Assembly: GCF_044324785.1 (NCBI RefSeq)
Contig: NZ_CP172127.1
Length of the DNA stretch: 64,000 bases
Direction: 5' to 3' (one strand)
Origin: Escherichia coli
GTDB taxonomy: Bacteria > Pseudomonadota > Gammaproteobacteria > Enterobacterales > Enterobacteriaceae
Below the pieces are notes generated by a model. It saw nothing but the letters and a program-made list of their open reading frames with translations. It was not told where the DNA came from and did no database searches. The translations under genes and the position numbers were made by a program. Positions 51,734 to 52,810 of this stretch are shown piece after piece. Each line of letters opens with the position of its first letter. Position 1 is the stretch's first letter.

Positions 51734-51756
51734 GGGGCGATACGCCCCACTTTTTT
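51734..51756. terminator. Rho-independent terminator after ssb
   Basis: GGGGCG-ATA-CGCCCC hairpin followed by TTTTTT. Confidence 0.7.
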
Positions 51757-51769
51757 ATCCGGAGGTTAC

Positions 51770-52714
51770 GTGAGTGAAAAAGTTAACAAAATCACTATGA
51801 TTCATGACGGGGCGTTAAAGAAGACGCTTGAAGATCCCGCAGCAGTAAGGGACTTTCTTGAACAGGTCTTGACACACGATCAGATATCCCGCTGTAATCT
51901 TGATACAATAGAAGTTGAAAAGAATTCGTTCGTGACGGAAAGTTTGCGTCAGCATGCCTGTGATGTTTTGATCAGCATGAAGACAAACGACGGCAGGGAC
52001 GGATACATTTATACCTTAATCGAGCACCAGAGTTCGCCGGATAAATTCATCCCGCTGCGTATGATGCGATATATCCTGGCTGTAATGGAGCAACATGTTG
52101 AAAAGCATAAGTGTGCACCTGTGGTGATCCCCGTGCTGTTTTATCATGGTGCAGTGCGGCCATATCCGTATCCGCTGAACTGGGTGGATTGTCTGGATGA
52201 CCCGGAGTACGGACGTGAGATTTATGGCGAGTCAAAGCCATTCAGTCTGGTGGATGTCAGTACGCTTGATGATGATGAAATTGAGCAGTATCGCCGGATG
52301 GCGGCGCTGATGTACACCATGAAGTCCGGAACTCAGGGTGATTTGATTGAGCTGATTGGTAAATCGATCACACTGACGGATAAGTATGGCAGCAGCGTTC
52401 ACCTGAATACGGTGCTTACTTATCTGATGGAACTTTACCAGATGGATGTTGCTGAACTTTTTGAAGCAATATCCACACACTATCCCAGCCACAAGGGGGT
52501 GATTATGACGATAGCGGAACAACTGGAAGAGAAAGGCCTTGAGAAAGGCCGTGCTGAAGGTCTTGCTGAAGGCCGTGCTGAAGAGCGTCAAAAAGCGCTT
52601 GCAGAAACCTATGCATCTGTCCGTCGCATGAGTGATATGGGGATGTCAACAGAAGTTATTAAGCAAGCTCTTCAGCTTTCTGATGAACAGATTCAGGAAG
52701 CGCTTAATAATTAA
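51770..52714 (+). CDS. Rpn-family recombination-promoting nuclease (YhgA-like, PD-(D/E)xK)
   Basis: About 315 aa from GTG after RBS GGAGG; motifs IHDGALKKTL, DVLISMKTNDGRDGYIYTLIEHQSSPDKFIPLRMMRY, VIPVLFYHG are collinear with E. coli YhgA-like proteins. Confidence 0.75.
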   Translation: MSEKVNKITMIHDGALKKTLEDPAAVRDFLEQVLTHDQISRCNLDTIEVEKNSFVTESLRQHACDVLISMKTNDGRDGYIYTLIEHQSSPDKFIPLRMMRYILAVMEQHVEKHKCAPVVIPVLFYHGAVRPYPYPLNWVDCLDDPEYGREIYGESKPFSLVDVSTLDDDEIEQYRRMAALMYTMKSGTQGDLIELIGKSITLTDKYGSSVHLNTVLTYLMELYQMDVAELFEAISTHYPSHKGVIMTIAEQLEEKGLEKGRAEGLAEGRAEERQKALAETYASVRRMSDMGMSTEVIKQALQLSDEQIQEALNN

Positions 52715-52781
52715 CCTCACATCGTAATGATGTGGCAGAGCGCGACTGATGCGTCAGAATGCGTGATGCCCTGTGAACACA

Positions 52782-52810
52782 GCGCCTGCCATTGTGCAGG
52801 CGTTTTTTTT
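52782..52810. terminator. Strong rho-independent terminator after the Rpn gene
   Basis: CGCCTGC-CATTGT-GCAGGCG followed by T8. Confidence 0.75.

Follow-up and report, generated by a model that had tools for sequence, protein, structure and literature searches.

A predicted RpnL/RpnS toxin–antitoxin gene-within-a-gene in a variable slot of an SPI-7/PFGI-1-type integrative conjugative element of Escherichia coli

What is the role of an Rpn-family nuclease gene that lies between ssb and pilL2 in an integrative conjugative element (ICE) of Escherichia coli? The question was raised by a stretch of 64,000 nucleotides of E. coli DNA (contig NZ_CP172127.1, hereafter the window), in which this gene, rpn, belongs to an element of the SPI-7/PFGI-1 type. 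The 4 kb of the window that were tested are 100% identical to the chromosome of E. coli O2:K1:H5 APEC E19035. Our analysis makes it quite probable that rpn is an RpnL/RpnS gene-within-a-gene toxin–antitoxin module and that it serves as anti-phage cargo of the ICE, in a slot whose content varies. The reading obtained at the level of annotation, that of a "nuclease or transposase" with an immunity gene nearby, is thereby corrected, as the likely immunity gene is found inside the nuclease gene.

The rpn gene extends from a GTG codon at 51770 to a TAA codon ending at 52714 on the + strand, as do all the features of rpn, of its flanking hairpins, and of ssb and pilL2 given below. It is predicted to encode full-length RpnL, a protein of 314 amino acids (aa) composed of a PD-(D/E)XK nuclease toxin and a C-terminal helical domain. 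The same coding sequence is present in the RefSeq annotation of the E19035 chromosome, and the allele of a sister ICE has an ATG codon at 51770. A longer open reading frame (ORF) starting at ATG 51491 was rejected, since it overlaps ssb in another frame and since the sister allele and the RefSeq entry both place the start at 51770. A Shine–Dalgarno (SD) sequence, GGAGG (51761–51765), is found 4 nt ahead of the GTG codon. The protein matched PF04754 (Transposase_31) over residues 12–204 (E = 4.8e-60), and scored 121 bits against the Rpn family model TIGR01784, whose cut-off is 52 bits.

When aligned to RpnA of E. coli K-12, the window protein contains D13, D65, E85, Q87, R97, and D169, the equivalents of RpnA D11, D63, E82, Q84, R94, and D165. 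By the same alignment, the codons of the catalytic core are those of D65 (51962–51964), E85 (52022–52024), and Q87 (52028–52030), corresponding to D63, E82, and Q84. In RpnA, the D11A, D63A, E82A, and Q84K substitutions abolish all phenotypes, and R94 and D165 matter too (PMC5350276). The N-terminal domain has the restriction-endonuclease-like (PD-(D/E)XK) fold, and D65, E85, H86, Q87, and R97 are invariant among 101 homologues sharing 35–100% identity. Thus, the initial annotation of the window, which had described an Rpn-family gene with its own ribosome-binding site, placed between two hairpin-plus-T-run sequences from ssb to the type IV secretion system (T4SS) module, was confirmed, and all the PD-(D/E)XK residues critical in RpnA, which it had asked to be verified, are conserved. 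The protein did not qualify as an equivalog of RpnA or RpnC, scoring 191 bits with NF007361 (RpnA) and 206 bits with NF007418 for a cut-off of 583 bits each, and a sequence search of the PDB with the window Rpn gave no match. By these comparisons, the window Rpn is a separate Rpn subfamily that has no orthologue among the K-12 paralogues.

Rpn genes have been described as toxin–antitoxin genes-within-genes, in which an internal start yields RpnS, a small protein that binds to full-length RpnL and inhibits it (Zhong et al. 2023, PMC10400941). The start of RpnA-S is M244, and RpnS is a three-helix protein (PMC10400941). In the window, a putative antitoxin of 69 aa, RpnS (52505–52714), would be translated in frame from the internal Met246 (ATG 52505–52507), with an internal SD sequence, AAGGGGGTGAT (52493–52503), whose G-run is separated from the ATG by a 5-nt spacer. 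Met246 aligns with the validated internal start M244 of RpnA, lies inside an invariant MTIAE motif, and is itself invariant in all 101 homologues. The duplex predicted between this internal SD and the anti-SD (−11.8 kcal/mol) makes it the strongest SD-like site of the entire ORF, ahead of the SD of rpn itself (−10.2 kcal/mol) and of the validated internal SD of RpnA (−8.5 kcal/mol). Across alleles, the SD-like purine run is kept despite differing encoded residues (KGVI, EDDI, EEQI, KESL, and GGESM), which argues for selection on the RNA signal. The RpnS model is composed of three helices (residues 3–44, 49–56, and 60–67), and this C-terminal domain superposes on the crystal structure of RpnA-S (PDB 7TH0). 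BLASTP gave no alignment between RpnS and RpnA-S. These results suggest that the immunity gene probably lies inside rpn, as the internal RpnS frame. The small immunity-like ORF that was expected nearby is therefore most likely not a neighbour of rpn in the window, and such an ORF does exist in most of its relatives, in the form of a stand-alone rpnSs gene.

In the Rpn proteins studied so far, 4-aa repeats are located in the first helix of RpnS, 8–20 residues after the Met, and their number varies among strains and sets specificity (PMC10400941). The window RpnS contains five such 4-aa (12-nt) units, EKGL EKGR AEGL AEGR AEER (52529–52588), starting at its residue 9 and lying in helix 1, and TRF reported a period of 12/24 at 52533–52583. 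Among near-identical ICEs (at least 97% identity), the number of units is 3, 4, 5, 6, or 9, and the lengths of RpnS in the homologues are mostly 49+4n.

Most of the near-identical E. coli ICEs contain ~390 bp more than the window between rpn and pilL2. This extra segment is a tandem copy of the 3' end of rpn, beginning ~80 nt ahead of the internal ATG and including the terminator, and it forms the stand-alone rpnSs ORF. The copy number of the 3' unit has a median of 2 and a maximum of 3 in the 53 genomes holding it. Strain SCU-171 (L009:5457–7312) has the rpn gene followed by two identical rpnSs, 126-aa ORFs annotated "transposase", and thus a three-unit tandem array. The number of repeat units differs from strain to strain, with 6 in rpn and 3 in rpnSs for AR_0089, 4 and 5 for CM2, and 4 and 4 for VTB97420v; GF60, with 9 units in rpn, and the window (E19035), with 5, have no rpnSs.

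Relative to AR_0089 and CM2, the ~390 bp are missing from the window. Informative sites of the window up to 52492 match the rpn copy of CM2, and every informative site from 52552 on, except one private single-nucleotide polymorphism near 52633, matches the rpnSs copy of CM2, whose protein is identical to the window RpnS. Because the window follows one copy up to 52492 and the other from 52552, its allele is, on this pattern of sites, an rpn::rpnSs fusion generated by unequal homologous recombination within the interval 52493–52551, which deleted one unit and linked the 5' part of rpn to the 3' part of rpnSs. The loss of rpnSs by fusion was mentioned by Zhong et al. (PMC10400941). The fused form is in the minority: the allele of the window was found in E19035 and TUM9803, and a fused allele with 9 units in GF60 and TUM1886.

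The window allele has lost a copy of rpnSs that most of its relatives kept, and rpn could thus be seen as a decaying, non-functional hitch-hiker, in which the internal Met and the repeats are leftovers and the fusion is a step towards loss. We consider such a decay highly improbable. The ORF is intact, and the catalytic or functional residues, as well as the internal SD and ATG, are preserved. The identical allele is shared by two genomes, as is the second fused allele with its 9 units. Finally, the fusion keeps the reading frame, and also the cognate pairing, since RpnL and RpnS share the same DNA.

A different arrangement was seen in an ICE clade of 86% identity. In E. coli G1/2 (L007:1657–3018), rpn has a different C-terminal tail (…SRLVLMMRQKGKSLEEIKDF…) and the downstream rpnSs has the window-type tail; the stand-alone antitoxin copy of this strain is therefore non-cognate to the neighbouring rpn.

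The block formed by STY4534 and ssb was present in ~105 of 5,426 complete E. coli genomes. Thirteen of the inspected E. coli loci have an intact junction and span every identity band from 100% down to matches limited to the flanking backbone genes, and in all of them rpn lies between ssb and pilL; a fourteenth inspected locus, that of W13-16, is a deleted remnant. Within E. coli, rpn was not inserted recently, and in this sense the discrete insertion proposed in the initial annotation does not hold, the related E. coli ICEs carrying the gene at the same junction. Between E. coli ICE clades, the Rpn N-domain is 47–49% identical, for 69–86% in the flanking proteins. In the sister ICE (loci L093–L097), the flanks are 93–100% identical per 60-nt bin on both sides, and the rpn allele is only 46% identical. 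This divergence is limited to 51768–52727, with approximate break points, and because these lie at ~51768 and ~52727, essentially the ORF alone was replaced in the sister ICE. In a clade-2 ICE, that of F2_407_2_2 (L010:2978–3628), an additional ORF of 216 aa that has no Pfam match was observed between rpn and pilL. At the DNA level, the nearest non-ICE relatives of the ICE rpn are plasmid Rpn genes, found in ~600 E. coli plasmid records with ~67% identity to the conserved core of the ICE gene (query positions 205–541).

No inverted or direct repeats bracketing 51768–52727, and no target-site duplication, were detected. An insertion sequence (IS) or an autonomous transposase, as in the older "ISNCY/putative transposase" annotation, was thus rejected: there are no terminal repeats, and the boundaries of divergence match the ORF, not IS-like ends.

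The slot was also analyzed in other genera, by scanning one genome per species with the STY4534 alignment. This gave 76 loci, from Edwardsiella, Mixta, Brenneria, Serratia, Erwinia, Pantoea, Pectobacterium, Xenorhabdus, Photorhabdus, and others, in which the distance from the ssb N-domain to pilL was 0.3–5.6 kb. An Rpn gene was found within 7 kb in none of the 76 ICE loci. The slot was instead occupied by AbiD, by an AIPR/AbiU-like protein together with a HEC-01A/B (PARIS-like) pair, by Gabija GajA and GajB, or by AbiEi and AbiEii, and further by DNA methylases, a DndB-like protein, a DUF29 protein, and other small ORFs. Because no locus of the other genera has an Rpn gene, and because the allele replacement is confined to the ORF between near-identical flanks, rpn is, on this distribution, cargo and not part of the ICE backbone. 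The ssb–pilL junction behaves as a defence-cargo hotspot and therefore supports a defence role for rpn. In the literature, of which the searchable part is incomplete, we found nothing specific on Rpn proteins on ICEs or on an ssb–pilL hotspot.

Some contents of the slot were recorded in their own right. Serratia ICEs have a single DUF29 protein (PF01724, E = 5.6e-47; L022:8082–8522) that has no match in PADLOC, and ORFs of similar size (~145 aa) are found at this position in further ICEs of Serratia and Pantoea (e.g., L024, L026, L082, and L085), the family match being known for L022 only. Given the other slot contents, the DUF29 protein is a candidate uncharacterised defence or toxin–antitoxin gene. 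In Xenorhabdus indica (L039:8844–10181), a slot ORF of 445 aa resembles, by eye only, a group II intron reverse transcriptase.

The same distribution bears on the idea that the nuclease helps the ICE to recombine or to mobilise, acting as a "recombination-promoting nuclease" or a transposase-like enzyme and not in toxin–antitoxin defence. Overexpressed RpnA-D raise RecA-independent recombination (PMC5350276), and unequal recombination is frequent at the locus itself. This explanation nevertheless seems to us very unlikely, as the absence of rpn from all 76 related loci of other genera indicates that it is dispensable for ICE function, and the ORF has neither terminal inverted repeats nor target-site duplications on its sides. 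Moreover, Zhong et al. found no evidence for transposition (PMC10400941), and the rearrangements of the locus are explained by homologous recombination between the ~390-bp direct repeats. Two functions had been envisaged at the outset; the toxin fits the published biology of Rpn proteins, whereas the gene is unlikely to promote ICE recombination, being absent from most members of the ICE family.

The main rival explanation is that the module is mainly an addiction system and keeps the ICE stable by post-segregational killing: in cells losing the element, RpnS would run out and residual RpnL would kill, and phage defence would be secondary or absent. The toxin–antitoxin architecture is compatible with this, as is the position of rpn next to topB, STY4534, and ssb, which are genes of ICE maintenance, with parA, parB, and a ParE-like toxin further upstream, and as is its retention in every inspected E. 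coli ICE with an intact junction. The slot of related ICEs, however, holds classical defence systems (Gabija, AbiD, and the PARIS-like pair), the fast allele turnover and the variation in repeat number fit an arms race better than stabilisation, and the ICE families of other genera manage without rpn. Addiction as the main function is thus unlikely in our opinion; it is also compatible with defence, the two roles not being mutually exclusive.

The sequences that flank rpn were compared with those of other ICEs. A first terminator-like hairpin followed by a T-run, T1 (51733–51757; −12.5 kcal/mol), lies directly after ssb and consists of a 7-bp hairpin with 6 G-C pairs (51733–51749) and a T6 run. 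A second, T2 (52781–52812; −15.3 kcal/mol), consists of a 9-bp hairpin (52781–52804) followed by T8 and forms the right border of the slot. Seven terminator-like sites were found in a 5-kb region for 4.0 ± 2.4 expected, which is not above chance, and the case for terminators thus rests on the strength and the conservation of T1 and T2, not on the number of sites. The GGGG/CCCC core of T1 is invariant in six E. coli ICE clades; no covariation was detected in T1 among the compared clades, the stem being invariant. A weak pairing between the T-run and the SD drawn by RNAalifold was not trusted. A terminator-like hairpin is found after ssb in most of the ICEs compared, including those that have no rpn, and both T1 and the SD are located in the flank that is conserved beside the rpn allele of 46% identity.

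On the right side, homology of the window to the rpn-less ICEs of other genera starts at ~52776–52803, where the T2 stem begins, and extends into pilL. This homology appeared at a more sensitive search setting, a first blastn-short run of the slot borders having returned nothing. T2 looks like ICE backbone because the homology begins at its stem, and it is copied along with each rpnSs duplicate. The view of rpn as a self-contained cassette is therefore not supported, since both terminators and the SD belong to conserved flanks and T2 is common to ICEs devoid of rpn.

Scanning and inspection revealed no sigma-70-like site upstream of rpn, where only a few bases separate the T-run of T1 from the SD. 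Because a promoter would not fit into this interval, RpnL is probably produced in small amounts only, by read-through of the ssb terminator from the ssb operon, as judged from the anatomy of the locus. Transcription by read-through only would keep the toxin scarce, in agreement with the low levels of RpnL reported for K-12. For RpnS, the stand-alone rpnSs copies retain only 84–177 nt ahead of the internal ATG, a hint that a promoter lies in this stretch, and it is probable that RpnS has an additional internal promoter.

Taken as a toxin–antitoxin module with a defence role, rpn would work as follows. By analogy with RpnA, RpnB, RpnC, and RpnP2, RpnS would dimerise with the identical C-terminal domain of RpnL and block DNA cleavage. 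As in the published work on Rpn proteins, the number of repeats would set cognate specificity, and infection or stress would shift the RpnS/RpnL balance, upon which RpnL may cut DNA and limit phage yield. This is a known kind of system, whose mechanism was published in 2023; what is specific to the locus is the ICE slot, the replacement of an allele over the ORF alone, and the rpn::rpnSs fusion mapped here.

Several observations weigh against a defence module of this kind. The identity of the window protein is only 38% to RpnA and 37% to RpnC. The Foldseek comparison to 7TH0 was insignificant, with E = 1 for RpnS alone and nothing significant for the full-length model. A Pfam scan of RpnS and rpnSs for DUF4351 (PF14261) or PF27070 gave no match, a result that is uninformative as the validated RpnA-S has no match either. 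No sigma-70-like site that could serve as an internal promoter for rpnS was found upstream of 52505, by scanning or by eye. PADLOC returned a weak "putative invertase" match on the C-terminal helices only, and as PADLOC v2 has no Rpn model, it provided no independent defence call. The defence genes of the slot come from Xenorhabdus and Photorhabdus ICEs, and several other genera have only small ORFs or the DUF29 protein of unknown function. Finally, the defence conferred by RpnP2 was modest and dependent on conditions (PMC10400941).

The locus nonetheless offers a natural series in which the published rule on repeat number and specificity can be tested, with near-identical ICEs having 3, 4, 5, 6, and 9 units; zero, one, or two extra rpnSs; one mapped fusion; and one replacement of the ORF only. 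It also designates the ssb–pilL junction as a place to look for defence genes, the DUF29 protein and the other small slot ORFs of Serratia, Mixta, and Pantoea being candidates. A bolder and rather doubtful proposal is that, in the SPI-7-type ICEs of enterobacteria, this junction may serve as a dedicated hotspot for defence cargo and, in the E. coli lineage, the rpn–rpnSs tandem array as a system of recombinational cassettes. Toxin and antitoxin would be re-specified together by unequal crossover between rpn and stand-alone rpnSs copies of different repeat number, or even of different tail type, the window allele being one such switch seen after it took place, and a heterologous rpnSs (type-A behind type-B rpn) might neutralise the RpnL of competing elements and not that of its own.

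The surroundings of rpn are those of the ICE. The left border of the slot is ssb (51166–51723; PF00436, E = 9.5e-35), so named in the identical RefSeq record, and on the other side pilL2 (52905–53483; TIGR03748, E = 2.4e-38) is the first gene of the pilus/T4SS module, the other pilus/T4SS genes following downstream. The rpn gene (46.5% GC) is AT-richer than both ssb (53.6%) and pilL2 (61.8%). On the 5' side of rpn, in the orientation of the window, are topB (47658–49676), the STY4534/DUF3577 "ICE replication protein" gene (50386–50850), and a 67-aa ORF between the latter and ssb. Ahead of topB, the order is integrase, parA, an SPI-7-type dnaB, parB, an STY4528-family gene, and a PFL_4669-family gene.

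Other features were observed along the window. The intergenic region that separates topB from the STY4534 gene contains a 61-nt tandem repeat (49955–50134; 2.9 copies, 90% match), which could represent iterons or an origin. Inside the pilus/T4SS module is a 197-aa Mrr_cat-type "restriction endonuclease" gene (56139–56732), which was found in every E. coli ICE relative whose retrieved region reached that far. Genes for a ParE-family toxin-like protein and for an HNH endonuclease are present in the maintenance region of the ICE. A gene for a 1171-aa "AAA domain-containing protein" lies directly beside the ICE integrase, and a virulence island adjoins this integrase (~1–34000 of the window; NZ_CP126926.1 4691644–4725448), with pap (papG-II), tia, a phosphoethanolamine transferase, and pgtABCP.

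Among known systems, the first comparison is with RpnA (YhgA) of E. coli K-12, which consists of the RpnA-L nuclease and the RpnA-S antitoxin (PMC5350276, PMC10400941, PDB 7TH0) and shares with the window protein PF04754, the functional residues, and the internal Met with its SD. The two differ in that RpnA-S has 49 aa and no repeat units, for 69 aa and five units in the window RpnS, and in that RpnA is chromosomal, whereas the window rpn is on an ICE and has no room for a promoter ahead of the gene. At the rpnC and rpnE loci, rpnSs is a 3' end that has been duplicated in tandem, and a fusion can remove it again (Zhong et al., PMC10400941). Like RpnC (YadD) with rpnC-Ss, and RpnE with YpaA (rpnE-Ss), relatives of the ICE in the window have one stand-alone rpnSs, or two, downstream of rpn, and PGAP, in newer records, names the small ICE ORF "RpnC/YadD family protein". 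Clade-2 ICE alleles also have GIEK-type repeats that resemble the KGIE of RpnC. Unlike the RpnC and RpnE loci, the window has already fused its rpnSs away, and one ICE clade has an rpnSs whose tail type is unlike that of its rpn.

A second comparison is with RpnP2, which protects against T-even phages (PMC10400941). This protein, plasmid-borne in ECOR13, is likewise an Rpn protein with L/S architecture on a mobile element. The plasmid Rpn homologues that we found share ~41–42% protein identity with the window Rpn.

As for the slot, hotspot 5 of the SXT/R391 ICEs, the subject of work by LeGault et al. in 2021, is reportedly a defence-cargo hotspot. Hotspots of this kind are also found in P2 and P4 (PMC9122126). 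As in these, one fixed position flanked by conserved backbone genes, ssb and pilL2 in the present case, contains defence systems that differ from relative to relative. Compared with the SXT/R391 and P2/P4 hotspots, the slot described here belongs to a different ICE family and is a different one, located between ssb and pilL2.

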